From positions 6,672-70,671 of the forward strand of contig MFLT01000003.1 of NCBI GenBank assembly GCA_001781415.1: DNA of 64,000 bases. Direction: 5' to 3'. Of the stretch, positions 3,700 through 64,000 are shown piece by piece. The position numbers were made by a program, and so were the translations under genes. The DNA is from Candidatus Kaiserbacteria bacterium RIFCSPLOWO2_01_FULL_45_25. GTDB lineage: Bacteria; Patescibacteriota; Minisyncoccia; Phycocordibacterales; UBA918. How positions within the stretch are numbered: position 1 is the first letter of the stretch; every line of letters begins with the position of its first letter. Under the pieces are notes generated by a model. It ran no database searches. It was not told where the DNA came from and saw nothing but the letters and a program-made list of their open reading frames with translations.

Positions 3700-3781
3700 G
3701 CCTCGGTGGCGGAATTGGTATACGCGCACGACTCAAAATCGTGTATCGCAAGGTGTGAGGGTTCGACCCCCTCCCGAGGCA
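3700..3781 (+). tRNA. tRNA-Leu(CAA)
   Basis: Acceptor gcctcgg/ccgaggc, anticodon loop cuCAAaa, long variable arm, T-arm gagggttcgaccccctc. CCA not encoded. Confidence 0.8.
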
Positions 3782-4025
3782 CAGAAAATGACCACTCCTT
3801 TCAGGAGTGGTCATTTTGTGCCTCGGGAGCAAGCAAATAATTTTGCTTGCGTAGGGGGTCGAAAACCGCAGCGATGCCGTAGGCGAGCGAGGTGGGGTCG
3901 AGAGTACTTAGCAGAATCTGAGCTTGCGAAAGATTATGCTTAGTAACTCGTGACCGACCCATCTCCAATTATATATCTGTGACCGACCCCTGTCTTTCCA
4001 CCACCTGACCGACCCATCTCCAGCC
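3782..4025 (+). repeat. tRNA-linked composite repeat element, copy A
   Basis: Terminator palindrome aaaatgaccactcc..ggagtggtcatttt, then an inverted copy of the tRNA 3' end (gtgcctcgggag). A second palindrome and inverted T-arm (gtagggggtcgaa) follow. Then the conserved core ccgcagcgatgccgtaggcgagcgaggtggggtcgagagtacttagcagaatctgagc...tacttagtaactcgtgaccg. It ends in three degenerate direct copies of gaccgaccc(a/c)tctcc, matching the tRNA T-loop/3' end. Confidence 0.6.
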
Positions 4026-4101
4026 CAACCCAACAAGACAAACAAAAAACCCGCCGAAGCAAAGTTTTTTGCTTAGCGGGCTGGTTTCAGCCTTTTTCAT
4101 C

Positions 4102-5713: not shown

Positions 5714-5990
5714 AAAATGAAAAACCAAAGCGTCAAGCTTTGGTTTTTCTAATTTTGCGATGGCCCACGAGGATTCGAAAGACGGAGCCGGGGACCCTTT
5801 GGGCCGGCGAGTCCGGGGAGAAAGTTCTTAACGAGCTTGCGAGTTTAGAAACTTGACCCCGAATCATCGTGGGATTAAATAGAACAAATATACTTAGTAA
5901 CTCGTGACCGCATGCGGGCCTCGCGGCACCTGCTAGATTGTGAGCATAGCGAGACAATATAACTTGGTGACCGTCAGGACGAATCCTCAT
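5714..5990 (+). repeat. tRNA-linked composite repeat element, copy B (two tandem units)
   Basis: Terminator palindrome aaaaaccaaagc..gctttggttttt, then an inverted tRNA 3' end (tgcgatggcccacgaggattcgaa). The core variant ends ...acgagcttgcgagtttagaaacttgacc and is followed by a direct copy of the tRNA 3' end (ccgaatcatcgtggg). A second unit ends ...atatacttagtaactcgtgaccg. Confidence 0.55.
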
Positions 5991-6040
5991 AAACTTAACA
6001 AAACAAAAACCGCCTCAAGGCGGTTTTTGTTTTGTCAGGC
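5991..6040. terminator. Bidirectional intrinsic terminator
   Basis: aaaacaaaaaccgcctcaaggcggtttttgttttgt. Confidence 0.6.
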
Positions 6041-9784: not shown

Positions 9785-10648
9785 CTACGGCCTGTACACA
9801 ACATCTATATGGTCTCTCTCAACTGCGTAGGTAGCATTTCCATTTACATAAGTTCTTGTGCCGTCTCTCCAAGGTGCTCCAGGAGTAAAATTATTTTGAA
9901 CATAACTAACCAAAGCAGGATTATTGTTGGTTCTTAAGTCTAATTTATATCCATTAGAGTGGGAGTAAGTACCGTTTTGATGAGTTCCACCAGTACCTTC
10001 AGTAACCACAATATTACAACCACAAGATCGGTTTAGTGCAATTACCCCATCAATCACATGTGGTTGAATTCCTTCAAGCCTAGCTCCTGGTTTTACACCA
10101 ACACCAGCAGCACTTAATCTGGATGCGGCTTCTGCTTGTGTTAGCGGTGTACCAGGCGCACTAGGAGCCGAAGGGTCAGTTGGTACTGTTCCAGCCGGTT
10201 CAGGATTTGTCTCAACGTACTCATGTGGCACTACTTGAGTAGTACACTGCACTTGTGACCATGGTCCCCAGCCAACTAACTCACCCATGGCTGCACCACT
10301 AGAGCCACCGCCCACCAAACCTTTCATAACCGTATCAACAATCAACCAAGCGGCTAGCACAATAATAATTCCAATAAGAGCATTCTGGAACTTTGATTTA
10401 GCAGCATCAAGAGCTGACTGATTTCCACCTGATGTCACGAGTCCAAAGCCAGCGACCACCATCATAACTGCAAACAGTATGAACAAGATGCCGATAAGCC
10501 AAACAATGATGAGGTTAATCATGGCCACCAACTGACAAGACCCACAGTCTGCACCACTACAAGTCACGAGTCCGGTTTGTGCCAAAACGGCATCAGTTGG
10601 CAAAAACATCAGAGCAAAAGCGATAACAGCAACTGGTATAAATTTCAT
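9785..10648 (-). CDS. TrbC/VirB2-like (CPR 'T4SS-pilin'-type) membrane domain fused to a C-terminal M15-peptidase-like domain
   Basis: Signal peptide, Cys pair and two TM helices, like the pilin paralogs at 31-32.7 kb. The C-terminus, NRSCGCNIVVTEGTGGTHQNGTYSHSNGYKLDL, resembles the SxHxxGxAxD motif of zinc D-Ala-D-Ala carboxypeptidases. Recognised from memory, not searched. Confidence 0.5.
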   Translation of the reverse strand: MKFIPVAVIAFALMFLPTDAVLAQTGLVTCSGADCGSCQLVAMINLIIVWLIGILFILFAVMMVVAGFGLVTSGGNQSALDAAKSKFQNALIGIIIVLAAWLIVDTVMKGLVGGGSSGAAMGELVGWGPWSQVQCTTQVVPHEYVETNPEPAGTVPTDPSAPSAPGTPLTQAEAASRLSAAGVGVKPGARLEGIQPHVIDGVIALNRSCGCNIVVTEGTGGTHQNGTYSHSNGYKLDLRTNNNPALVSYVQNNFTPGAPWRDGTRTYVNGNATYAVERDHIDVVYRP

Positions 10649-10649
10649 A

Positions 10650-11168
10650 TTAAATAATTATATTACAACTCTGGGTTAACGGCGTTGCTGTTGAGCACAT
10701 ATATGTATCTGCCGGCAATGTAACCAAGTTATCTAAAGGTACTGCAAAACTACTACGTGGTTGTGGTGCTGGCTGAGTTGTACAGATGATGTCATTCCAA
10801 ACACCGTAATTTTCTTGTCTGAGCAGGAAGCGCAAGCCAGTATCCACTAGCATCCACGCTGCCAAAAATAGTATGTACCCAACAATAGCGTTACTGATTA
10901 GTTTACGAGCGTTTGTCACTGCTGATAGATCACCAGCCGCTACCACCATCCTGAGTCCAGCCAGCATAATGAGAATAACCACTATAATTCCCATAACTGT
11001 CGCCAACCAGCCACCAACCGTCGCCACTAGTGCTCCAACATGGCACATTTGGCATGGCTCTTCACCTATCCCACCACACGGAACCAACCCGGCTGCAGCC
11101 ACCACAGACGGAGAAAGAAGAATGAGAGTAGGCAGGAAGCTTTTCCACATATAGGTATATACTAGCAT
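10650..11168 (-). CDS. TrbC/VirB2-like pilin-type membrane protein; the ORF-track start at 11420 is unlikely because it runs through tRNA-Tyr fragments
   Basis: From MLVYTYMWKSFL: signal peptide, Cys-containing segment, two TM helices. Adjacent and co-oriented with the 9785..10648 gene. Confidence 0.5.
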   Translation of the reverse strand: MLVYTYMWKSFLPTLILLSPSVVAAAGLVPCGGIGEEPCQMCHVGALVATVGGWLATVMGIIVVILIMLAGLRMVVAAGDLSAVTNARKLISNAIVGYILFLAAWMLVDTGLRFLLRQENYGVWNDIICTTQPAPQPRSSFAVPLDNLVTLPADTYMCSTATPLTQSCNIII

Positions 11169-11230
11169 GACCACTCTTTGAAAATCAGGCAAGATGTGGT
11201 AATTTGTATGCCACATACGGCATACCGTAT

Positions 11231-11270
11231 TAATCGCGTCGGTACTCAAGCGGTCAACGAGGGCAGACTG
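11231..11270 (+). repeat. Partial 5'-half duplicate of tRNA-Tyr (first ~40 nt up to the anticodon)
   Basis: gcgtcggtactcaagcggtcaacgagggcagactgta is identical to the 5' part of the full tRNA-Tyr gene 200 bp downstream. It diverges exactly at the anticodon loop. Confidence 0.55.
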
Positions 11271-11431
11271 TATGACTTGCGCTTTGCGCACCAGGAAGTC
11301 ATGCTGGCATAGGTGTCTCCCACCGGAGACTCTGTCTAAAGTCGCTAGACGCGACACACCAGTAAATCTTGCAGATTTCCAGTCTGCTGATATAACTGAT
11401 AGGACCAAGTGATACAACAAAATAAATAAAT

Positions 11432-11514: not shown

Positions 11515-11935
11515 CGCGTATAAAAAACCGTCCAAGCACAAGCTTGGGCGTTTTTTATTGCGTGCGCCGGAGCAAGGCATCTGCATGCCTTGCGTGAGGG
11601 ATTCGAAAAGCGCAGCGATGCCGTAGGCGAGCGAGCTGGGGTCGAGAACACTTAGTAGATTATGAGCGAAGCGAAATAATATACTTAGTGATTTGTGACC
11701 GAATCCCTCCCCTCCCGGAGCACATTAGAATTAAAAACACCAAATGGTGCTTTTTCTAATGTGCGCCGGGAAGTGAAATGTCTGGGAGACATTTCATGTG
11801 GGATTCGAAGCCCGATTGAGCTAGATTGAAAGCAAAGCGCATCAATCTAGCCAATTGGGGTACTGGTCGTGTAACGACCGAAATTCCCTCCCGGCGCACG
11901 CGTTAAAAATCCTTGCTCAACAAGGTATTTTTATA
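11515..11935 (+). repeat. tRNA-linked composite repeat element, copy C (tandem, with two direct repeats of the tRNA-Tyr 3' end)
   Basis: Terminator palindrome, then inverted tRNA 3' end (tgcgtgcgccggag), a second palindrome and an inverted T-arm (cgtgagggattcgaa). Core gcgcagcgatgccgtaggcgagcgagctggggtcgagaacacttagtag...tacttagtgatttgtgaccg|aatccctcccctcccggagcaca. A second unit ends ggtcgtgtaacgaccg|aaattccctcccggcgcacgcg, and a terminator hairpin closes the element. Confidence 0.6.
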
Positions 11936-12932: not shown

Positions 12933-12950
12933 TCAACTAGGTCACCTACA

Positions 12951-13001
12951 CCCCGCCCACACCAGAAAGCCACCCGGCTTCGGTTGGGCGGTTTTCTTTT
13001 T
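12951..13001 (+). terminator. Conserved cassette terminator, copy 1
   Basis: ccccgcccacaccagaaagccacccggcttcggttgggcggttttcttttt: GC-rich stem, C(UUCG)G loop, T-run. Confidence 0.7.
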
Positions 13002-13023
13002 ACCAACACTCAAGTATAAATAT

Positions 13024-13051
13024 TGACTTTTTCACAAAATCTATGTTTAAT
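13024..13051 (+). promoter_or_regulatory. Conserved cassette promoter, copy 1
   Basis: -35 TTGACT, 16-nt spacer, -10 TTTAAT. This is part of an ~110-bp block that is near-identical to 13840-13920. Confidence 0.55.
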
Positions 13052-13105
13052 ACTTGCCTATCAGACACAGGGTGTGTTTGTGTGTTCCTTTACAGGAGTT
13101 TGAAA

Positions 13106-13766: not shown

Positions 13767-13818
13767 ACCCCGCCCACACCAGAAAGCCTCCCAGCTTCGG
13801 TTGGGCGGTTTTCTTTTT
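13767..13818 (+). terminator. Conserved cassette terminator, copy 2
   Basis: aaccccgcccacaccagaaagcctcccagcttcggttgggcggttttcttttt. Confidence 0.7.
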
Positions 13819-13839
13819 ACCAACACTCAAGTATAAATA

Positions 13840-13867
13840 TTGACTTTTTCAAAAAATCAATGTTTAA
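13840..13867 (+). promoter_or_regulatory. Conserved cassette promoter, copy 2
   Basis: ttgactttttcaaaaaatcaatgtttaatac: the same -35/-10 as copy 1, followed by the same cagggtgtgtttgtgttcctttgtaggag leader. Confidence 0.55.
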
Positions 13868-13919
13868 TACGTCCCTATCAAACACAGGGTGTGTTTGTGT
13901 TCCTTTGTAGGAGAAGACA

Positions 13920-14612
13920 ATGAACCAAAGCAAGATTCGTGACCAACGCATGTGGGCAAAGTGGAATGCGGCCGGGGCCGTCAGCGGGGCCATCAAGCTT
14001 GTGGCGGACTACTCTGCAGGAGATCAAAAGATCCTGGATGTCCTCTCCAATGAGATGACAAATGACGTCATCGACGAGGCGATCGGCAATTGGACGCAAC
14101 GGCATTTCAAGAAACCCAACCCCCGAGTGAAGACGCTGCTTCTGGGATACGCAACAGCGGTCACTAGAAAGGTGTTCGCTGGAACAACTCCCTACCCCGA
14201 CTTCTCACCGGAATGGAAACGAGACGTCTCTAATCGGGCCTACGCACTCCTGGATTTCAAGAAGTTCAAGGAGCAGCAAGTCCCAGTGATCGTAGACGCG
14301 CTTTCTCCCATCCTGGGCGATACACGCGACAAGTTCGAAAATGGCTTGCATGGTTATTCTCTCGCCAAGATTGCGAACGTCGTCGGCTGTGTCGCCTATA
14401 TGGTGAAGAACGGTCTCGAGCCCGAGCTCCTCCGTATGACACCCGAAGAAGCGAACGCGTCGCTCCTCAAGATGGCGGAAACTCGCGCCAAGACGCATCC
14501 TGACAAGGTGCTCACTTTCGATCCGTCGACCGACGAGCCCCATGAAGTGGTCACAGAGATCCTTCTCCGGACAAATCCGCCGGACATCAGCGCGATCCTA
14601 CCCAAGAGGTAA
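13920..14612 (+). CDS. Hypothetical protein (GC-rich cassette gene)
   Basis: ORF with RBS aggagaagacaATG. No recognisable family. Confidence 0.5.
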   Translation: MNQSKIRDQRMWAKWNAAGAVSGAIKLVADYSAGDQKILDVLSNEMTNDVIDEAIGNWTQRHFKKPNPRVKTLLLGYATAVTRKVFAGTTPYPDFSPEWKRDVSNRAYALLDFKKFKEQQVPVIVDALSPILGDTRDKFENGLHGYSLAKIANVVGCVAYMVKNGLEPELLRMTPEEANASLLKMAETRAKTHPDKVLTFDPSTDEPHEVVTEILLRTNPPDISAILPKR

Positions 14613-14664
14613 CCCCGCCCACACCAGAAAGCCTCCCGGCTTCGGTTGGGCGGTTTTCTTTTAT
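14613..14664 (+). terminator. Conserved cassette terminator, copy 3
   Basis: aaccccgcccacaccagaaagcctcccggcttcggttgggcggttttcttttattt. Confidence 0.7.
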
Positions 14665-15717: not shown

Positions 15718-15767
15718 CCCCCGCCCCACCAAAAGCCACACGGCTTCGGTTGGGCGGTTTTCTTTTA
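15718..15767 (+). terminator. Conserved cassette terminator, copy 4 (compensatory changes in the 5' arm)
   Basis: cccccgccccaccaaaagccacacggcttcggttgggcggttttcttttat. Confidence 0.65.
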
Positions 15768-16364: not shown

Positions 16365-16394
16365 CCGGTCTTGGGTTGGGCGGTTTTCTTTTAT
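16365..16394 (+). terminator. Conserved cassette terminator, copy 5 (partial)
   Basis: ggtcttgggttgggcggttttcttttatac. Confidence 0.5.
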
Positions 16395-25261: not shown

Positions 25262-25600
25262 ATGTCTACTGGTCGTCATTTACGAGTTGAATCACTTATT
25301 CGCGAATTAGTCGCGGGGTTTATTCAGCATGAAGCCAATACAGACCCGCTCATCACAGTTACTCACGTCACCACTTCACCTGACTACCGCCGTATCACTG
25401 TTTTTTTTACCACCATGCCTGAAGGAAAAGAGAAAGAAGCAGCAGCCCTTGCTTTCCTCATGCGTAGTGGTGGTGAGCTTCGTGGCTACATCAAGAAGAA
25501 GAGTAACCTCAAAATCATCCCATTTATCGAGTTTGCAGTAGACTATGGCGAACGTCATCGTCAGCACATCGATGAGATCGCTCGCGAGATTGATAAATAA
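25262..25600 (+). CDS. rbfA: Ribosome-binding factor A
   Basis: RVESLIRELVAGFI...ITVTHVTTSPDYRRITVFFT is the typical RbfA KH-like fold sequence. It lies immediately after infB. Confidence 0.85.
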   Translation: MSTGRHLRVESLIRELVAGFIQHEANTDPLITVTHVTTSPDYRRITVFFTTMPEGKEKEAAALAFLMRSGGELRGYIKKKSNLKIIPFIEFAVDYGERHRQHIDEIAREIDK

Positions 25601-25628
25601 TAAAAAAGCTGCTCAACTGAGCAGCTTT

Positions 25629-25701
25629 TTCTATATTGAGACCAGAGCGGGAGTCGAACCCGCGCGTGGCGGTTTTGCAAACCGCAGCGTTAACCACTTC
25701 G
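25629..25701 (-). tRNA. tRNA-Cys(GCA)
   Basis: Reverse complement: gaccagatggcgaagtggttaacgctgcggtttGCAaaaccgc...gggttcgactcccgctctggtct. No downstream repeat element; it shares the rbfA terminator. Confidence 0.8.
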
Positions 25702-25952
25702 CCATCTGGTCAAATTGGTGCCTTACACTGTATCACCCTTCCCTTTGTTTATAAACCCCAGACATAATGATAAAGTACGCCAAAATGCGAGCTCTGCGGC
25801 TGGGCAGAGGTGTCGAAAGATGGTAGAATCCCAGTCGAACTCGATCATATAAACGGTAATCACCGTGATAATCGGCTAGAAAATTTAAGAGTTCTCTGCC
25901 CAAATTGTCATAGTCTGCAGCCGACGCATCGAGGAAAAAATCAAAAGAAACC

Positions 25953-26036
25953 GCCGGGGTGGCGAAATCGGTAGACGCGCAACACTTAAAATGTTGTAGG
26001 CGAAAGCCTATATGGGTTCAAGTCCCATTCTCGGCA
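25953..26036 (+). tRNA. tRNA-Leu(TAA)
   Basis: Acceptor gccgggg/tctcggc (G-U pairs), anticodon loop cuUAAaa, long variable arm, T-arm atgggttcaagtcccat. Confidence 0.8.
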
Positions 26037-26250
26037 CAAACAAAAATCATCAGCTTTGGCTGATGATTTTTGTTTGTGCCGAGAAAGAAAGCAAACTACT
26101 TTGCTTTCGGTGGGACTTGAAGCTCCGGACGATATGCTCTGCTCTGTGAAGAGCAGAGCATAAGGAGGAGCCGACCAAGAACGCGAGACTGTTTTATGAG
26201 TAAAGCGAAATAAAAGAGCCGCGATTCTGGGTCAAGTCCCCCACCCCATA
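26037..26250 (+). repeat. tRNA-linked composite repeat element, copy D (second core variant)
   Basis: Terminator palindrome acaaaaatcatcagc..gctgatgatttttgt, then inverted 3' end ttgtgccgaga, a second palindrome and an inverted T-arm ggtgggacttgaagc. Core variant tccggacgatatgctctgctctgtgaagagcagagcataaggaggagccgaccaagaacgcgagact...atgagtaaagcgaaataa...gccgcgattc, followed by a direct T-arm copy tgggtcaagtccccc. Confidence 0.55.
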
Positions 26251-26318
26251 ATTTGACATTTTGCGCATACATTGTATTATTTAGGGAGATTGCCCCTTCA
26301 ACAACCGGAGACTCTACC

Positions 26319-26735
26319 ATGAACGACATCATCTTTTTGGTTCTCGATCATGGAATCGGGAAGCAAATGACCTTGCAAATGGTTCAGGAAATGCGCAAGA
26401 AAGTAGCCTATGCGCTACTTGTGCACTATGAGGTTTTCGACCAGTCCGAAGGCCACTACCGGCCACTGACCTCACGTGAGCAAGTACGCCTCCTCCCCGA
26501 GGACAACCTGCTACGTATTGCTCGCCAAGACGAGCATCCGGAACAACTGCCCGGCGAAATTTATCTTGGCTCCTTTGAGCCGAGTGAAATCAAAAGTCTT
26601 TTTGTACTCACCTCCTGGCAGCCACGTACCGGCGACAAAGCCTATGCGAAGTCGGGAAAGGTCCTTTACGACCACCGACCGGTGTTTGCCAAAGCGTCGG
26701 ACATCTTCATGATGACCGAGAAAATTTCGGCCTAA
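26319..26735 (+). CDS. Hypothetical protein (GC-rich; start at MNDIIF, not the ORF-track 26253)
   Basis: RBS ggagactctaccATG. Followed by the cassette-style terminator cagccccacaaatgtggggctgtttcttttcc. Confidence 0.45.
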   Translation: MNDIIFLVLDHGIGKQMTLQMVQEMRKKVAYALLVHYEVFDQSEGHYRPLTSREQVRLLPEDNLLRIARQDEHPEQLPGEIYLGSFEPSEIKSLFVLTSWQPRTGDKAYAKSGKVLYDHRPVFAKASDIFMMTEKISA

Positions 26736-26854
26736 AAAGCCGTCAAATGAAGCCGATGCGCCGACAACAGCCCCACAAATGTGGGGCTGTTTCTTTTCCT
26801 TCTTGTATATTATAAACATTTGTTGTACACTTCTTGCCACATCCGCCCTCTTAG

Positions 26855-26927
26855 CTCAGCTGGTAGAGCAGCTCCCTCTTAAGGAGAAGGTCCAAGGTTC
26901 GATCCCTTGAGGGGGCACATACGTAAA
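26855..26927 (+). tRNA. tRNA-Lys(CTT)
   Basis: Acceptor gccctct/agggggc, anticodon loop cuCUUaa, T-arm caaggttcgatcccttg. Confidence 0.75.
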
Positions 26928-27190
26928 GCAAAACACCCTATCCACATGGATAGGGTGTTTTGCTTTAGCATCTGCCCTGCGGCAGATGCGTGCGTATGTG
27001 CCGACCGCAGCGATGCCGGAGGCGAGCGAGGTGGGGTCGAGAGTACTTAGCAGAATCTGAGCTTGTGAAAGATTATGCTTAGATAAAACTTTCTGGGAGA
27101 TAGTTTTATCGTGACCACAAAAGGAGATACCCCTTGAAGGCAAGACTAACAATTATACTTAGTGATTCGTGACCACACGTGCCCCCAACA
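26928..27190 (+). repeat. tRNA-linked composite repeat element, copy E
   Basis: Palindrome aaagcaaaacaccctatcca..tggatagggtgttttgcttt, then inverted 3' end tgcgtatgtgcc. Core ccgcagcgatgccggaggcgagcgaggtggggtcgagagtacttagcagaatctgagcttgtgaaagattatgcttag, with an inserted 28-nt palindrome ataaaactttctgggagatagttttatc. A second end follows: tacttagtgattcgtgacca|cacgtgccccc. Confidence 0.6.
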
Positions 27191-27249
27191 GTTAAATACC
27201 CGTATCTCTCGCCATATTTATATTTTATGCTATACTCTTCCCCACACCT

Positions 27250-27331
27250 GCGCGGGTGGCGAAATTGGTAGACGCGTTAGTCTTAGGAACTAATAGGGTA
27301 ACCTGTGGAGGTTCAAGTCCTCTCCCGCGCA
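27250..27331 (+). tRNA. tRNA-Leu(TAG)
   Basis: Acceptor gcgcggg/cccgcgc, anticodon loop cuUAGga, long variable arm, T-arm gaggttcaagtcctctc. Confidence 0.8.
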
Positions 27332-27495
27332 CAGTAATAAAACCGCCTCTGGCGGTTTTATTGTGCGCGGGAGAGCAAAGCGCTAATGCGCTTTGCGTAG
27401 GACTTGAAAGCCGGAACGATGCCGGAGGCGAGTGAGGCGGGGTCGCGGAAAATCTCTGAAAGAGATTTATCTGTGACCAAGTCCTCTCCTTGCTT
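27332..27495 (+). repeat. tRNA-linked composite repeat element, copy F (short core)
   Basis: Palindrome aataaaaccgcc..ggcggttttatt, then inverted 3' end gtgcgcgggagag, palindrome caaagcgc..gcgctttg, inverted T-arm cgtaggacttgaa. Core agccggaacgatgccggaggcgagtgaggcggggtcgcgg...atctgtgacc|aagtcctctcc, a direct copy of the tRNA T-loop/3' end. Confidence 0.6.
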
Positions 27496-27597
27496 AAACC
27501 TTCATCAAAACCTATACCGCTCATGTAATGAGAAAGACTCCTCTACGCACAAACAAAAAGACCCGAAAGGGTCTTTTTGTTTACCTTAAAAATTTTC

Positions 27598-31505: not shown

Positions 31506-31886
31506 TTAAAGACCTCCTACTTGTGGAATGTTATCTAGAGTATCTCCCTCTAGTCCAGTACTACTAGCGAGAAGGTTTACTACTCCCCAGAATACAATAA
31601 TAAGGAGGAAACCGAGTGTTGCGTAAATCATCAAACTCTTTCCTTGCTCCTTAGCATCATCGTTAGCACCGCCAACAATGAAGAACTTGAACATACCCCA
31701 AACGAAGACGAGGAAACCGATACCAATGATAAACGGAATAAGTACTTCGTTGGTAAATTCAATAATATTTCGAAGCAATGTTTCAAATTGACCACCTCCT
31801 CCTGAGGTTGCAATTTGAGCAAGTGCTACCATCGGTGAGAGGAGCATTGCAGCTGCTGATCCGGCAAATAAATTTAAACGTCGCAT
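31506..31886 (-). CDS. TrbC/VirB2-like pilin-type protein, paralog 2
   Basis: MRRLNLFAGSAAAMLLSPMVALAQ signal-like N-terminus and two TM helices. Near-identical N-terminus to the 31991..32320 gene. Confidence 0.55.
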   Translation of the reverse strand: MRRLNLFAGSAAAMLLSPMVALAQIATSGGGGQFETLLRNIIEFTNEVLIPFIIGIGFLVFVWGMFKFFIVGGANDDAKEQGKSLMIYATLGFLLIIVFWGVVNLLASSTGLEGDTLDNIPQVGGL

Positions 31887-31990
31887 ACAACAATTTTGAT
31901 ATTAATAATAACGCGCTACCTATAATTATACACAAAATTGTAGCGTAGCGCGCTAGCTTAAGCAGGTATGTGTATAAGTCTATACTAGGC

Positions 31991-32320
31991 CTAAAAGCCA
32001 AATATCGACTGCCGAAGCATGGCCACGACACCCCAAGCAATTACCATCAAGACCACAACAAAGACTGCGACCGTCGCATATTTCTTCCCTTCTTCACGTT
32101 TTTGTTCGTCGCCACCATTGAGGACCCAAGCATCAAATATCTTCCAAACTAAAAATAAAAAGACAACCGAGAAAATGGCTGGGATAATTAAATTTATAAT
32201 CCCAAGAATTTGATCTACAAAGCCATTAAAGGTGGTGGGAGTTGTAACCTGAGCAAGTGCTACCATCGGTGTAAGGAGCGTTGCAGCTGCTGATCCGGCA
32301 AATAAATTTAAGCGTCGCAT
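31991..32320 (-). CDS. TrbC/VirB2-like pilin-type protein, paralog 3
   Basis: MRRLNLFAGSAAATLLTPMVALAQ and two TM helices. Tandem paralog of the 31506..31886 gene. Confidence 0.55.
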   Translation of the reverse strand: MRRLNLFAGSAAATLLTPMVALAQVTTPTTFNGFVDQILGIINLIIPAIFSVVFLFLVWKIFDAWVLNGGDEQKREEGKKYATVAVFVVVLMVIAWGVVAMLRQSIFGF

Positions 32321-32337
32321 ATGATAAATTATGATAT

Positions 32338-41092: not shown

Positions 41093-41162
41093 ACTACAGT
41101 CGACCGCTCCCTGCGGGGTCGCGGCTCGACTAAGTGTCTGACTAAGTTCAAAATAGTCGACG
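41093..41162 (-). repeat. Dispersed stem-loop element, family R, copy e (inverted; on the pth 5'-leader side)
   Basis: Reverse complement: cgtcgactattttgaacttagtcagacacttagtcgagccgcgaccccgcagggagcggtcgactgtagtgg. Confidence 0.5.
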
Positions 41163-41230
41163 TTTTACGTCTCGTTTTTTCACTCATTGTTTTTAGTTTT
41201 TTCTTAAAGTATAATAGTGAAACTTTTGCT

Positions 41231-46393: not shown

Positions 46394-46612
46394 GAAGTAT
46401 CTACTTACCTCGTAGTACTTATTACTCTCTGTAGCAGGCACTGCCGGACGGAGCGTAGTGAGTCGCCCCTTTCCTAGGGCGACGAACCGCGAGTCGGGGT
46501 CGAGAACACTTAGTAGAATTTTGCACGAAGTGCTAAATTATACTTAGTGATTCGTGACCGGTGCCGGTATATCTTTTAACAAAACCCGCCTCTAGGCGGG
46601 TTTTGTTAAAAT
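46394..46612 (+). repeat. Composite repeat element core, copy G (no adjacent tRNA), with terminator
   Basis: gcaggcactgccggacggagcgtagtgagtcgcccctttcctagggcgacgaaccgcgagtcggggtcgagaacacttagtagaattttgcacgaagtgctaaattatacttagtgattcgtgaccg, then the terminator aaaacccgcctctaggcgggtttt. Confidence 0.55.
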
Positions 46613-46639: not shown

Positions 46640-46765
46640 GACACTGCCGGCCGCAGCGAAAAGTGAACAAACGAGACGCAAAGCGTCGACTATTGTGAAC
46701 TTATGCAGAAGTAATATTATTTTCGACCCACAAGGGAGAAAATAATATATACTTCCTGCAAGTAA
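46640..46765 (+). repeat. Dispersed stem-loop element, family R, copy d (~100 bp upstream of trxB); begins with the core-like ccgcagcga
   Basis: gcagacactgccggccgcagcgaaaagtgaacaaacgagacgcaaagcgtcgactattgtgaacttatgcagaagtaatattattttcgacccacaagggagaaaataatatatacttcctgc. Confidence 0.55.
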
Positions 46766-48271: not shown

Positions 48272-48702
48272 CATCGGTATTAAACAAACGACCACTTCTC
48301 AGGAAGTGGTCGTTTGTTTAATAGAAAGCAAAGAGTTTTGCTTTCGTACCGATGTGACAGTCGGAGCACTGTGAGCTTGCGAACAAGCGAGACGGGGTCG
48401 AGAGTACTTAGATTTTTATGAGTAAAACGAAATAAAAAGCTTAGTAACTCGTGACCACAGGAGTGACCACCAATGTTGCCTGCGGCCTGCTGTGAGGCCG
48501 CAGCGATGCCGGAGGCGAGCGAGGCGGGGTCGAGAGTACTTAGCAGAATCTGAGCTTTGCGAAAGATTATGCTTAGATAAAACTTTCTGGGAGATAGTTT
48601 TATCGTGGCACAAATGCAGAACTGAGTGGAGCGAAGACCTTATTTAACGAGCTTGCGAGCTTAGAAACTTGACCCCGATTCTCCGTAGGGTCACACTTTT
48701 TT
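48272..48702 (+). repeat. tRNA-linked composite repeat element, copy H (two tandem cores)
   Basis: Two palindromes, then the inverted 3' end gtaccgatgtgac. Core 1 ...gagacggggtcgagagtacttag...atgagtaaaacgaaataaaaagcttagtaactcgtgacc. Core 2 ccgcagcgatgccggaggcgagcgaggcggggtcgagagtacttagcagaatctgagc..., with the same inserted 28-nt palindrome as copy E. Ends ...gcgagcttagaaacttgacc|ccgattctccgtagggtcaca (direct tRNA 3'-end copy), then a T-run. Confidence 0.6.
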
Positions 48703-48774: not shown

Positions 48775-49437
48775 ATGAAAAATATATTCATTGTAGTTTT
48801 ATTGATACTACTATCGGGGGTAGGAGTATTTATTTATACAAATGTAAAAAATAATGATTTACCCTCAAATGAAAAGGTTACCTACACTAATAATTTACTT
48901 GGTTATTCAGTAGTTTTACCAGATGGATATGAAGTGGCTGAAGAATATACAAAATTTGTTAATCAAGACCTTGAATTAGGATCTATAACATATGAAGATA
49001 AAGTTTTTGATATCCAACGAGCAGAAATTATTGTCTTTTCTCCTGACACAATAGAAGAGCAGCTAGAGACAATAAATAGAGCATCATCATATTCAAACGA
49101 AGGTAAAATGCTTACTCAAGAACCAAACTACATCTATATTGAACCAAATCCAGTTTCACCAGAGATAAGAAATCGTTTAGAGGAGAAACTACAAGAAATA
49201 AACCCAAAAGATGAAGATGGATTCCGTCTAGCTAATACACCTTTAATGTTTAGTGCGGAAAAAGTACAAGAAAGAATTATAAAGACAGTTTTGCTTGAAG
49301 AGACAAAAAAATACTATGTCAACGAAAGTTACAATGATACTGGATATCAAGAGGTGTATGGCTTAGACATTGTTGTTCCAAATAATAATGAGGCTAAACA
49401 AATTGTAGCCAAGATGATAGCTAGTCTAGAATATTAG
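48775..49437 (+). CDS. Hypothetical membrane-anchored protein, strongly AT-rich
   Basis: N-terminal TM helix. Lys/Asn/Glu/Ile/Tyr-rich composition, unlike neighbouring genes. Confidence 0.45.
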   Translation: MKNIFIVVLLILLSGVGVFIYTNVKNNDLPSNEKVTYTNNLLGYSVVLPDGYEVAEEYTKFVNQDLELGSITYEDKVFDIQRAEIIVFSPDTIEEQLETINRASSYSNEGKMLTQEPNYIYIEPNPVSPEIRNRLEEKLQEINPKDEDGFRLANTPLMFSAEKVQERIIKTVLLEETKKYYVNESYNDTGYQEVYGLDIVVPNNNEAKQIVAKMIASLEY

Positions 49438-49561
49438 TAATTGTTATCTACTTCCCAAACCCCTCCAAGACTTCATCTCCTTAACAAGTTGGTTCCAATT
49501 CGTAATACTTAGTGTCACAACGGGTACAGAAAAAGCGGGACGATTCTCCGTAGATTAACAT

Positions 49562-55229: not shown

Positions 55230-55305
55230 GTCCGATTAGCTCAGCTGGTAGAGCGCTTCGTCGACATCGAAGAGGTCACAGGTTCAAGTCCTGTATCGGA
55301 CACCA
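55230..55305 (+). tRNA. tRNA-Val(GAC), CCA encoded
   Basis: Acceptor gtccgat/atcggac, anticodon loop ucGACau, T-arm acaggttcaagtcctgt, then a-CCA. Confidence 0.8.
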
Positions 55306-55344
55306 TTATAAAAAGCCCCGGGTGGGGCTTTTTATAATGGTGTC
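55299..55344. repeat. 46-nt perfect palindrome spanning the tRNA-Val 3' end and its terminator (left boundary of the islet)
   Basis: gacaccattataaaaagccccgggtggggctttttataatggtgtc. Confidence 0.7.
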
Positions 55345-55623
55345 TTTAATTGTACCAAGTCCGAACCTGCTTCCAAAACAAATGATGTCATACGCGCCGA
55401 GCTCGTGGTGGTTTTGTACCTCTCCGTGCGCTCAACGTTCGTGGTGACGCCTCGGCCCACGCTAGCAAGCTCGCGTGGCGCACTTACAAAAAATTTTCTT
55501 ATCTTTTTATCGGCTCCTCCGCCGACACCTCCGCCGAAAGGCGAAAAGATATGGAAAAGAAATTTTTGGAGTGCGACGGCACTATCAAGGGAATACAAAA
55601 AGTGATAAAATACGAATACAACT

Positions 55624-56936: not shown

Positions 56937-56972
56937 TTATGAAAATAACCATCCTTGGAAATTGTGGAAAAA

Positions 56973-57022
56973 GACACCATTATAAAAAGCCCCACCCGGG
57001 GCTTTTTATAATGGTGTCCGAT
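56973..57022. repeat. Second copy of the tRNA-Val 3'-end/terminator palindrome (right boundary of the islet)
   Basis: gacaccattataaaaagccccacccggggctttttataatggtgtccgat. The left arm repeats the last 9 nt of tRNA-Val plus its terminator. Confidence 0.7.
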
Positions 57023-57095
57023 AAAACAAACGGGCTTACGCACCACCCTCACGCACTCCACTGACTCATATTCAATTCTAAGCTATAATTCTTAT

Positions 57096-63699: not shown

Positions 63700-64000
63700 A
63701 TCCGGATGTCTATCCTCGGGCTAGGGCCGCGAGTACAGCCAACCGGAACCAGGTGTGTTGGCGGCGTGCTCGACCCAGAATAGCGGCTACTTTACGGCAC
63801 TTCGTACCGTAAAGTAGACTCGCTTTCTTGGTCGGCTCCTCCTTGTTTTGTTCGCTAGAAAGCTCACAAAACGTCGTCCGGAGCTTCGAGCCCGCCCCCA
63901 AGCTACAAACAGAAACGGCGGAAACACTTTCGTGTTTCCGCCGTCTGTTTGGCGGGCTGATCCTGCGGTCACCAACGTACTTTGCTCCAAGTATTCGCAA
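63700..64000 (-). repeat. tRNA-linked composite repeat element, copy I (second core variant, minus orientation, truncated by the window end)
   Basis: Reverse complement reads ...gtgaccg|caggatcagcccgcc, terminator palindrome caaacagacggcggaaacacgaaagtgtttccgccgtttctgtttg, inverted T-arm, then the core gaagctccggacga...aaggaggagccgaccaagaaagcgagtct...gccgctattctgggtcgagc (compare copy D). The 63710..64000 ORF is therefore most likely spurious. Confidence 0.5.

Follow-up and report, generated by a model that had tools for sequence, protein, structure and literature searches.

Elements behind the tRNA genes of the window

The window analysed here is the whole 64,000-nt stretch of contig MFLT01000003.1 (positions 6,672 to 70,671) of Candidatus Kaiserbacteria bacterium RIFCSPLOWO2_01_FULL_45_25. 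It is bacterial chromosome, with open reading frames (ORFs) that include ClpB, GyrA, FtsZ, valyl-tRNA synthetase, GlmS and the initiation factor IF-2, and nine tRNA genes were located in it with ARAGORN and Rfam, of which eight lie on the plus strand and eight lack an encoded CCA end, tRNA-Val alone carrying one. An earlier note, made from the sequence letters only, had described a family of short elements built around the 3′ ends of these tRNA genes, and this observation is confirmed: the element follows seven of the eight plus-strand tRNA genes, and, as also claimed, a tRNA-less copy lies after ftsZ and a copy in minus orientation near the window end. Scanning of the window returned six occurrences of the motif that ends the core (0.05 expected) and five of the GCGATGCCG... 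motif (none expected), all on the plus strand, and self-BLAST revealed that the cores behind tRNA-Leu(CAA), tRNA-Lys and tRNA-Glu are 97% identical. A covariance model trained on 42 copies (117 positions, 33 pairs) recovered ten sense-strand copies in the window, including those behind tRNA-Trp, tRNA-Leu(TAG) and tRNA-Leu(TAA), indicating that these are homologous variants; the type-C core of the second tRNA-Tyr unit was missed by the model in this search. Copies of tRNA 3′ ends were found by a k-mer scan of the last 34 nt of each tRNA against the window.

The units share one order, in which a tRNA ending in a segment X is followed by a trailer, a hairpin (a), a segment X′, the core, a second X, termed (f), and often a second terminator. 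Hairpin (a) is an A/T-flanked terminator-type palindrome with perfect arms of 17–27 nt, the same kind of hairpin that forms the normal terminators of this genome. X′ is the reverse complement, and X the direct copy, of the 8–22 nt preceding the terminator hairpin of the upstream gene, and a hairpin (c) often splits X′ into two parts, (b) and (d). In the unit of tRNA-Leu(CAA) (3700–3782, plus strand, as are all units below unless stated), the last ~24 nt of the tRNA, from the T-loop to the discriminator plus C, constitute X. They are followed by hairpin (a) at 3784–3817, a 12-nt X′(b) at 3818–3829 that is the reverse complement of CTCCCGAGGCAC in the acceptor 3′ strand, hairpin (c) at 3830–3849 (AAGCAAA..TTTGCTT, a conserved component of the family) and an 11-nt X′(d) at 3853–3863, which is the reverse complement of TTCGACCCCCT in the T-loop and the 3′ strand of the T-stem and provides the 5′ strand of helix P1. 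The canonical three-way-junction core P1-P2-P3 occupies 3854–3962 (101.8 bits in the covariance model), and a decayed direct copy (f), CGACCCATCTCC (partial match at 3955–3966), opens a segment at 3955–4025 with two more GTGACCGACCC-type remnants. The terminator after this unit (4040–4093) contains a (c)-type hairpin, AAGCAAAgtttTTTGCTT, nested in a larger GC-rich stem.

Two junction classes were distinguished. In T-type units X extends from C56 of the T-loop through the tRNA 3′ end, and the series (b)-(c)-(d)-core-(f) folds in a tRNA-like manner, with b:f resembling the acceptor stem, d:f the T-stem and the core taking the place of the T-loop, while hairpin (c) is located where the D and anticodon arms emerge. 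In A-type units, to which tRNA-Lys and tRNA-Glu belong (arms GGCAC|ATACG and GTCAC|ATCGGTA), X consists of the last 3–5 nt of the tRNA plus the trailer. The proposal that arms (b) and (d) match the local tRNA therefore holds in that the arms follow the local tRNA, and fails in that those at tRNA-Lys and tRNA-Glu are not T-arm sequence; direct copies (f) beginning at C56 of the T-loop were found at the T-type units and also, over the full 19 nt, at the distal end of the tRNA-Glu array. The right junction is as the earlier note gave it, GGTT|CGA being replaced by GTGAC|CGA. Its view of hairpin (c) as locus-specific was not borne out, as the hairpin has the conserved form AGCAAA-N-TTTGCT (of 25 such hairpins in the fetched loci, 19 are followed by a core at a distance of <120 nt), and the two core variants that it recognised have become at least four related types.

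The (f) copy spans the full 19 nt in 14 loci and elsewhere often contains substitutions or internal indels. Comparison of 40 T-type loci gave 117 positions at which the functional tRNA and (f) differ; X′ follows the tRNA in 115 of them and (f) in none, and at orthologous tRNA-Lys loci the trailer changes along with X′ (ATACG/CGTAT and AAACGC/GCGTTT, with one mismatch in AGACGC/GCATCT). The maintained pairing is thus that of the tRNA end and trailer with X′ around hairpin (a), whereas pairing of X′ with (f) is kept mainly over the first 6–8 pairs, which form P1; the inner six pairs of P1 include 41 G.U against 17 A.C combinations. Conserved terminal inverted repeats, of the type found in miniature inverted-repeat transposable elements (MITEs) or repetitive extragenic palindromes (REPs), are not present, the arms of the element being locus-specific.

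The remaining T-type units vary in the make-up of X′ and core. The tRNA-Trp unit (5714–6035; 47.5 bits) comprises hairpin (a) at 5719–5749, a contiguous 18-nt X′ at 5762–5779, a variant-D core at 5770–5867 with an extra segment to 5916, (f) at 5980–5988 and a distal terminator at 5998–6035. Two tandem units follow tRNA-Tyr. Unit 1 (11516–11720) comprises (b) 11562–11570, (c) 11573–11592, (d) 11596–11607, a canonical core at 11598–11707 (107.6 bits) and (f) 11700–11718, and unit 2 (11721–11935) comprises (a) ~11727–11757, (b) 11761–11771, (c) 11773–11797, (d) 11800–11809, a type-C core at ~11810–11884, (f) 11885–11899 and a terminator. The tRNA-Leu(TAA) unit (26028–26240) starts with a palindrome of perfect 27-nt arms (26028–26054 and 26059–26085, the (b) match being 26076–26085), followed by (c) 26087–26108, (d) 26111–26121, a type-B core at 26112–26240 (23.7 bits) and (f) 26232–26240, while in the tRNA-Leu(TAG) unit (27333–27489), (b) 27363–27375, (c) 27376–27395 and (d) 27399–27408 precede a short-P3 core at 27399–27485 (49.2 bits) and (f) 27478–27489. 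The copy after ftsZ (46436–46611) has a canonical core at 46436–46566 (84.1 bits) with its own P1, GGCACTG/CGGTGCC, and a terminator at 46574–46611; a 42-nt inverted repeat (41143–41184 and 46662–46703, 90% identical) has its second copy just downstream. The minus-strand copy at 63765–63894 (type B; 16.6 bits, E 0.011) belongs, as the distal unit, to an array that continues past the window end, where its tRNA is located.

Further copies of tRNA sequence were observed at tRNA-Tyr and tRNA-Val. An exact 37-nt copy of the tRNA-Tyr 5′ half (nt 1–37, to the anticodon GTA) lies at 11236–11272, 196 nt upstream of the gene, and is followed by a decayed anticodon-stem-like stretch; it looks like the remnant of another insertion or duplication, at the anticodon loop. 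Just upstream of tRNA-Tyr, two adjacent ORFs within 9785–11420 (minus strand) match the type IV secretion pilin family PF18895. tRNA-Val is followed by a short palindrome, GACACCA-(a)-TGGTGTC, and no core. A 54-nt block with its 3′ end and terminator (55294–55347) is repeated in inverted orientation, with 100% identity, at 56970–57023, and the two blocks, 1.7 kb apart, bracket two genes. The product of one is transglutaminase-like; it contains a C...H...D motif and matched nothing in Pfam.

Fold, strand and distribution of the core

The core, ~110–130 nt in length, is a conserved three-way junction of P1 (X′:X), P2 and P3, with the junction strands AA/A after P1 and GGG between P2 and P3, and with P3 stacking directly on P1. 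P2 consists of three pairs, tandem G.A / A.G with one bulged nucleotide, and a variable hairpin; a kink-turn was considered for this G.A motif and rejected, as the bulged strand lacks the required G-A after the 3-nt loop. The long helix P3 is conserved in sequence, GGUCGAGAG(Y)ACUUAG ... CUUAGU(R)A(Y)UCGUGACC, and includes an A.G, a U.U and a bulged A. The core had been described as foldback-like with a conserved micro-ORF (ATGAGTAAARCGAAATAA). Neither description survives, the former giving way to a junction with covariation and strand asymmetry and the latter proving to be the GA-rich tip of P3, in which ATG and frame are unconserved across copies.

Covariation modelling, which the earlier note had proposed as a check, revealed compensatory changes on one strand. 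In alignment A2 (104 copies, MAFFT, no model fitting), 92.8% of cells are paired, compared to 81.3% in shuffles (reached by 0 of 500) and 26–38% with slid partners; in alignment A4 (138 copies, fitted to the covariance model), the values are 91.3% and 69.9% when shuffled, with changes on both sides in 31 of the 33 pairs. Examples are the P2 pair 119:194 (GC 37, CG 28, AU 25, UA 5) and pairs 206:283 (GC 60, AU 42) and 207:281 (CG 52, UA 50), and one G.U pair is kept in 102 of 104 copies. These figures come from copies that share descent and were first ascertained by the P3 pattern, which partly inflates the invariance of P3; the later covariance-model search added copies without that pattern. 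In 98 of 104 copies the predicted fold of the tRNA-sense strand is more stable than that of the complementary strand (mean difference −7.6 kcal/mol; Wilcoxon p = 1.4e-17). The sense strand also contains twice as many G.U pairs, and on these two grounds a gene on the minus strand was rejected. Together, this asymmetry and the covariation suggest that the selected structure is a sense-strand RNA, or possibly sense single-stranded DNA (ssDNA), and not a duplex protein-binding site. Promoter consensus scans gave promoters 5′ of the tRNA genes and none for the module. Searches against Rfam 15 at the gathering threshold returned tRNAs only, and at permissive E values (up to 10 or 0.5) only sub-threshold, hairpin-type chance matches, with no ribozyme, intron or retron model among them.

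The element is not a peculiarity of this genome. A pattern scan of one genome per species gave at least 117 loci and ~100 true copies among the matches listed, nearly all of these from Patescibacteria (Saccharibacteria, Kaiser-, Nomura-, Yonath- and Lloydbacteria, other Paceibacterota and Minisyncoccia), and the covariance model found 138 copies in 95 sources, again nearly all Patescibacteria, so that the copies constitute a structured family that is Patescibacteria-wide and numbers dozens of copies per genome. The core is associated with tRNA 3′ ends: in 109 of the 138 copies a tRNA or transfer-messenger RNA (tmRNA) gene ends on the same strand ≤700 nt upstream, at a median gap of 70 nt, while an opposite-strand tRNA or tmRNA lies upstream in none, nine lack room upstream and 20 have neither gene. 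The upstream genes encode 34 tRNA species from 17 amino acids, plus tmRNA. The tRNA-less copies have entered ahead of the terminator of a protein gene, directly behind the gene itself, and their X′ again reproduces the nucleotides that lead up to the hairpin, as after ftsZ (in the window and in contigs L136, L135 and L071) and rpsI (L024). One contig labelled Patiriisocius sp. (Bacteroidota; L014, JBLHQB010000003.1) carries five model matches and a tRNA-Trp in 8 kb and is most likely a mis-binned Patescibacteria contig. A phage origin was rejected, all six IMG/VR pattern matches being chance matches in coding DNA, and an assembly artefact is an unlikely source of the copies, as they occur in hundreds of independent assemblies.

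No partner gene emerged from the neighbourhoods. When all ORFs ≤3 kb from ~100 copies were clustered, no protein family recurred, the sole cluster being a spurious antisense ORF over the element, and the window ORFs tested next to elements contain no recombinase domain, their products being a secreted or membrane protein, the transglutaminase-like protein and unknowns. The remark in the earlier note that no integrase is present thus stands for the tested window ORFs and for recurrent families near the ~100 copies.

A strand-specific fold directly behind co-oriented tRNA and tmRNA genes in 109 copies, with covariation and conserved junction purines, would suit a host cis-acting RNA, a functional part of the tRNA precursor or 3′ trailer in which X′ would base-pair either to the 3′ end of the tRNA or to X, acting as a decoy. 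Such an RNA would attract RNase P, RNase Z or RNase III, protect the genes downstream against read-through or regulate 3′ maturation of tRNAs whose genes mostly lack CCA, as eight of nine do in the window; in T-type units it would mimic an acceptor/T minihelix (b:f, d:f), hairpin (c) marking the point from which the D and anticodon arms emerge. The perfect match of X′ to the functional tRNA, trailer positions that covary with X′, the tRNA-like shape of (b)-(f) and the retention of the module in very small genomes across the phylum agree with this role, and the antisense or processing structure that the earlier note offered as an alternative accordingly remains a live rival. Nevertheless, we consider it unlikely. 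No tRNA mimic is present in A-type copies and in copies after protein genes, the (f) copy is often decayed, and hairpin (a) should stop most transcripts ahead of the module. Nor is a link to absent encoded CCA clear, as in a biased sample element-like flanks accompany 11 of 20 CCA-encoding tRNAs and 122 of 168 others.

The same fold could be read as that of a mobile RNA. In this case the core would be a new ribozyme or retroelement RNA, and X′ would either guide it to the tRNA 3′ end or bind that end as a primer. Insertion would proceed by reverse splicing or reverse transcription. The arms are both complementary and identical to the target, like intron guide sequences; X′ covers the interval from 3′ end to T-loop that retroviral primer-binding sites cover; the inverted repeats close a three-way junction whose P1/P2/P3 resemble retron a1/a2-msr-msd; and the right junction is precise at T55|C56. 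We judge this explanation very improbable, given that no reverse transcriptase or other gene is linked to the ~100 copies and that searches with the models of known ribozymes, introns and retron RNAs gave no match even when E values up to 10 were allowed. X′ moreover copies gene plus trailer without CCA, which points to DNA or precursor, and not mature tRNA, as its template, and group II introns are reported absent from Patescibacteria (PMC13011429).

More broadly, it is a tentative possibility that the adjacent tRNA programs the core, which would then represent a functional or catalytic RNA of a novel class. In one version it would be a tRNA-specific guide or decoy acting on 3′ ends, with X′ as a 12–22-nt guide and T-type units mimicking the cognate minihelix; in the other, a protein-independent or RNA-guided mobile element that re-templates its recognition arms at each insertion. 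Either, if true, would be a mechanism without bacterial precedent and confined to Patescibacteria.

Turnover at orthologous loci and proposed modes of spread

In relatives with 83–89% IF-2 identity (contigs L118–L121), the same four tRNA genes lie downstream of infB-rbfA as in the window (25600–27500; Cys, Leu(TAA), Lys and Leu(TAG)). The cluster is conserved, and the order and orientation of its tRNA genes vary, which suggests inversions via the palindromes or elements. Occupancy differs from one relative to the next. Behind tRNA-Lys the window has an A-type array, the L118 contig ends 36 nt after the tRNA, L119 carries two to three tandem cores, L120 a single core and L121 a plain terminator, i.e. 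an empty site. Behind tRNA-Leu(TAA), type B in the window corresponds to type C in L118, to a canonical core with a contiguous 22-nt X′ and no (c) in L119, to an empty site in L120 and to another variant in L121. Empty sites, for which the earlier note had suggested a comparison of strains, were found in relatives at both tRNA genes.

The tRNA-Lys unit of the window (26919–27190) consists of (a) 26924–26967, (c) 26968–26990, X′ 26991–27003, core(s) at 27004–27174 (38.2 bits) and an X-like segment at 27175–27186. A contig of the same species (L130), with sequenced flanks 100% identical to the window over kilobases, differs only within 27004–27190, where the core has another P2, P2a and P3 subtype and (a), (c), X′ and flanks are unchanged; it also has an unrelated N-gap further downstream. 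The ftsZ copy is similarly mosaic, the core in L135 sharing only its last ~35 nt with that in L136. An apparent 155-nt polymorphism between L134 and L135 was discarded as a scaffold gap of N's.

tRNA-Glu is a hotspot. Its A-type array (48273–48694) comprises (a) 48278–48323, (c) 48324–48345, X′ 48346–48358, core unit 1 at 48349–48463 (96.5 bits), core unit 2 at 48486–48601 (40.8 bits), a type-D remnant at ~48640–48675 and a full 19-nt (f) at 48676–48694, so that 413 nt with two cores and the type-D remnant separate the tRNA from an old (f) that is conserved across relatives. The corresponding interval in L135 spans 1.57 kb and contains two units and a Band_7 gene. An older remnant, the 3′ end of a type-C core plus a 13-nt tRNA-Glu copy, CGATTCTCCGTAG (49500–49553), follows the ORF at 48775–49437. 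This ORF lies between two displaced tRNA-Glu 3′ copies. Its 220-aa product has a membrane or signal segment at the N-terminus and matched no Pfam family, and a homologue is conserved at the corresponding place in L135. Also in L135, a displaced tRNA-Glu 3′ copy at 5775–5808 is split after CGAT by 13 nt (AAGGCGCAGCCGG) that equal the first 13 nt of the canonical core, as if a unit had entered the T-loop of the copy and had then been mostly deleted. In the arrays and remnants at tRNA-Tyr, -Glu, -Lys and -Leu(CAA), intact units lie beside the tRNA and fragments are distal.

This turnover weighs against a host RNA, as orthologous tRNAs do without the element (Lys in L121, Leu(TAA) in L120, besides Val and Cys in the window), several tRNAs have two or three units plus decayed fragments, and core types are interchangeable at one tRNA. 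It agrees in part with the attL/attR layout proposed in the earlier note, of which the intact tRNA, the insert and the displaced 3′ copy, with arrays, distal decay, empty and filled sites and protein-coding cargo, are all seen. The T-loop crossover proposed with it leaves the A-type copies and those after ftsZ, rpsI and tmRNA uncovered.

A version of that model in which the inverted copy is explained assumes a miniature integrative element served by a recombinase in trans. The mobile form would be a small circle, (a)-X′-core-X, folded into a rod closed by (a) and the three-way junction, much like the folded single-stranded attachment sites of integron attC and CTX phage, and its X would recombine with the identical X of the tRNA in a Campbell-fashion single crossover. 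In favour of this version, the insert is bordered on both sides by the tRNA 3′ segment in direct orientation, and the tRNA is restored intact; beyond the distal X there is usually a further terminator that differs from (a), which fits an arrival of (a) with the element; X′ is complementary to both flanking X copies, as a split circle helix predicts; tmRNA genes are also targeted; cargo lies between tRNA and old X at the Glu locus of L135; and a strand-asymmetric fold suits an ssDNA form too. We nonetheless regard this route as improbable. No recombinase gene is linked to any of the ~100 copies, and no circular form was seen. One core type is found with arms for 34 tRNA species, and 97%-identical cores carry unrelated arms within one genome, which would require dozens of co-evolved X/X′ specificities or separate core conversion. 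In addition, the same-species pair changed the core only, and not (a), (c) or X′, and A-type identity with the tRNA amounts to only ~3–5 nt.

Considering the observed anatomy, fold, strand, tRNA association, phylum-wide spread and turnover, we favour, at an evenly balanced level of confidence, a selfish, recombinationally mobile, RNA-structured non-coding module that colonises tRNA 3′ ends throughout the Patescibacteria. Polymorphism at orthologous sites, arrays, fragments, interchangeable cores and a recent core replacement argue for a selfish recombining repeat over a fixed tRNA appendage, and we infer that the module is selfish rather than useful to the host. The A-type copies and those after protein genes indicate that tRNA mimicry is not needed and that P1 is built from whatever precedes the terminator hairpin. 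As a single core type is combined with the arms of 34 tRNA species, and as one and the same orthologous tRNA is followed by several core types with differently built X′, the arms are probably generated or corrected locally, and not carried, so that they would be made or kept matched in situ; the templating in situ proposed in the earlier note is favoured only by this combinatorial argument.

In the mechanism that we propose for the selfish module, entry at a tRNA 3′ end would leave the intact tRNA and terminator on the left and displace the old 3′ end to the right, with the result that repeated entries would build arrays with decaying copies distal. Cores may be exchanged between loci by recombination or gene conversion, and both entry and exchange may occur by recombination at shared short sequences, either TTCGA / CGAnTCC of the T-loop or the ...CAC-A 3′ end. 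Fold-back (quasipalindrome) template switching would keep the terminator-centred quasipalindrome perfect, the constrained tRNA arm serving as template, and the module would be transcribed only as read-through from the tRNA or upstream gene.

Several points weigh against this proposal. No transposition or recombination intermediate was seen and no enzyme was identified. The phylum-wide conservation of P3 and junction sequence in streamlined genomes also fits a host function. Ascertainment by the P3 pattern accounts for part of the P3 invariance, and A4 was fitted to the model. The conserved hairpin (c), placed exactly at the acceptor/T-stem boundary inside X′, is unexplained by simple fold-back copying, and the distal terminator usually differs from (a), which a pure template-switch duplication would not predict. 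Hairpin (a), moreover, looks like an efficient terminator, which may limit how much of the module is transcribed. Our confidence is modest because the mechanism accounts neither for hairpin (c) nor for the conservation of the core fold.

Patescibacteria genomes are among the smallest and most streamlined of bacteria, yet dozens of copies of the module are kept behind most of their tRNA genes. If selfish, it would show a new way in which an element without proteins can exploit the T-loop and 3′ end of tRNA genes, the most conserved sequence in any genome, and yet leave the gene functional, and it would be a ready marker of strain variation in uncultured lineages; if functional, it would reveal how tRNA precursors are handled, at a level so far unrecognised, across a major share of bacterial diversity. 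In both cases Rfam lacks an RNA-type motif that is large and well supported. As a conserved scaffold enclosed by antisense and sense copies of its target, the element is of interest for programmable nucleic-acid recognition, and for annotation, the partial tRNA copies and palindromes can confuse the calling of tRNAs, terminators and ORFs.

The window also contains repeats apart from these copies. Small ORFs arranged in tandem are each followed by a separate intergenic repeat of 50–134 nt, 90–98% identical, which has no relation to the tRNA element (12950–13083, 13767–13900, 14612–14662, 15719–15766 and 16370–16394), and a 72-nt direct repeat, 94% identical, lies at 31816–31887 and 32250–32321.

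Comparison with known systems

Topic and motif-string searches of open-access papers and preprints returned no description of the element. The closest parallels are islands and prophages integrated at tRNA or tmRNA 3′ ends by tyrosine integrases with T-loop sublocation, which likewise leave an intact tRNA on one side and a displaced copy starting in the T-loop on the other, use tmRNA targets, form serial-insertion arrays and place cargo genes at the same hotspot. In contrast, the present element is 110–300 nt long, neither contains nor adjoins an integrase gene, carries the tRNA end in inverted orientation as well, combines one conserved core with 34 tRNA species plus tmRNA instead of one or a few targets, includes A-type and protein-gene copies, and has a core that is a covarying single-strand fold. 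The X-(a)-X′ palindromes are similar in shape to integron attC sites, whereas their arms are tRNA sequence without a conserved core site, and no integrase was detected among the tested window ORFs.

Quasipalindrome template switching and tandem-inversion duplications in enterobacteria likewise give rise to short segments repeated in direct-inverted-direct order, whose junctions carry hairpins, and keep the hairpin arms perfectly complementary. Unlike the case described here, template switching imports no conserved foreign core, and it leaves the conserved hairpin (c) unexplained.

REPs and bacterial interspersed mosaic elements, enterobacterial repetitive intergenic consensus sequences, Correia-type repeats and MITEs are also short, non-coding, multi-copy, hairpin-rich and strain-variable, and lie in intergenic regions by terminators. 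The inverted repeats of the present element, however, are unconserved among copies and copied from each target; inside, it forms a three-way junction in which compensatory changes and an asymmetry of G.U pairs are seen; and its orientation and linkage to tRNA genes are strict. Similar to the RNAs of IS200/IS605-TnpB and IscB (omega/reRNA), it has a flank-derived segment, X, after a scaffold, and it differs from them in having no linked gene and no Rfam match.

Among structured RNAs, retron non-coding RNA (a1/a2, msr, msd) also uses inverted repeats to close two structured domains, one of them a long hairpin, whereas the element has no adjacent reverse transcriptase, occurs in dozens of copies per genome and takes its closing repeats from the neighbouring tRNA. 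Non-coding RNAs derived from tRNA precursors (plant dicistronic tRNA-snoRNAs with RNase Z, bacterial 3′ external transcribed spacer RNAs and tRNA-like processing signals of the mascRNA type) are likewise structured, co-oriented and directly downstream of a tRNA, and release by tRNA-processing enzymes is plausible here too. Those RNAs, however, are single orthologous functional loci, while the element is polymorphic, arrayed and decaying and has both antisense and sense copies of the tRNA end. The hepatitis delta virus-like ribozyme at the R2 5′ end, which pairs with 28S rRNA, and intron guide sequences share with it site specificity, co-transcription with a structural-RNA host and a fold that uses host sequence; the element differs in being bacterial, lacking an ORF and showing no similarity to known ribozyme models. 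Two further candidates were set aside, namely TIGR-Tas dual-guide arrays, whose 36-nt tandem units beside Tas genes are unrelated (PMC12045711), and the group I introns of Patescibacteria tRNAs, which are anticodon-loop introns (PMC13011429).

On this comparison, we place the element among the tRNA-targeting mobile or repeat elements, as one of which no earlier description was found in these searches; there is a substantial chance, although well below even, that it is something categorically new.

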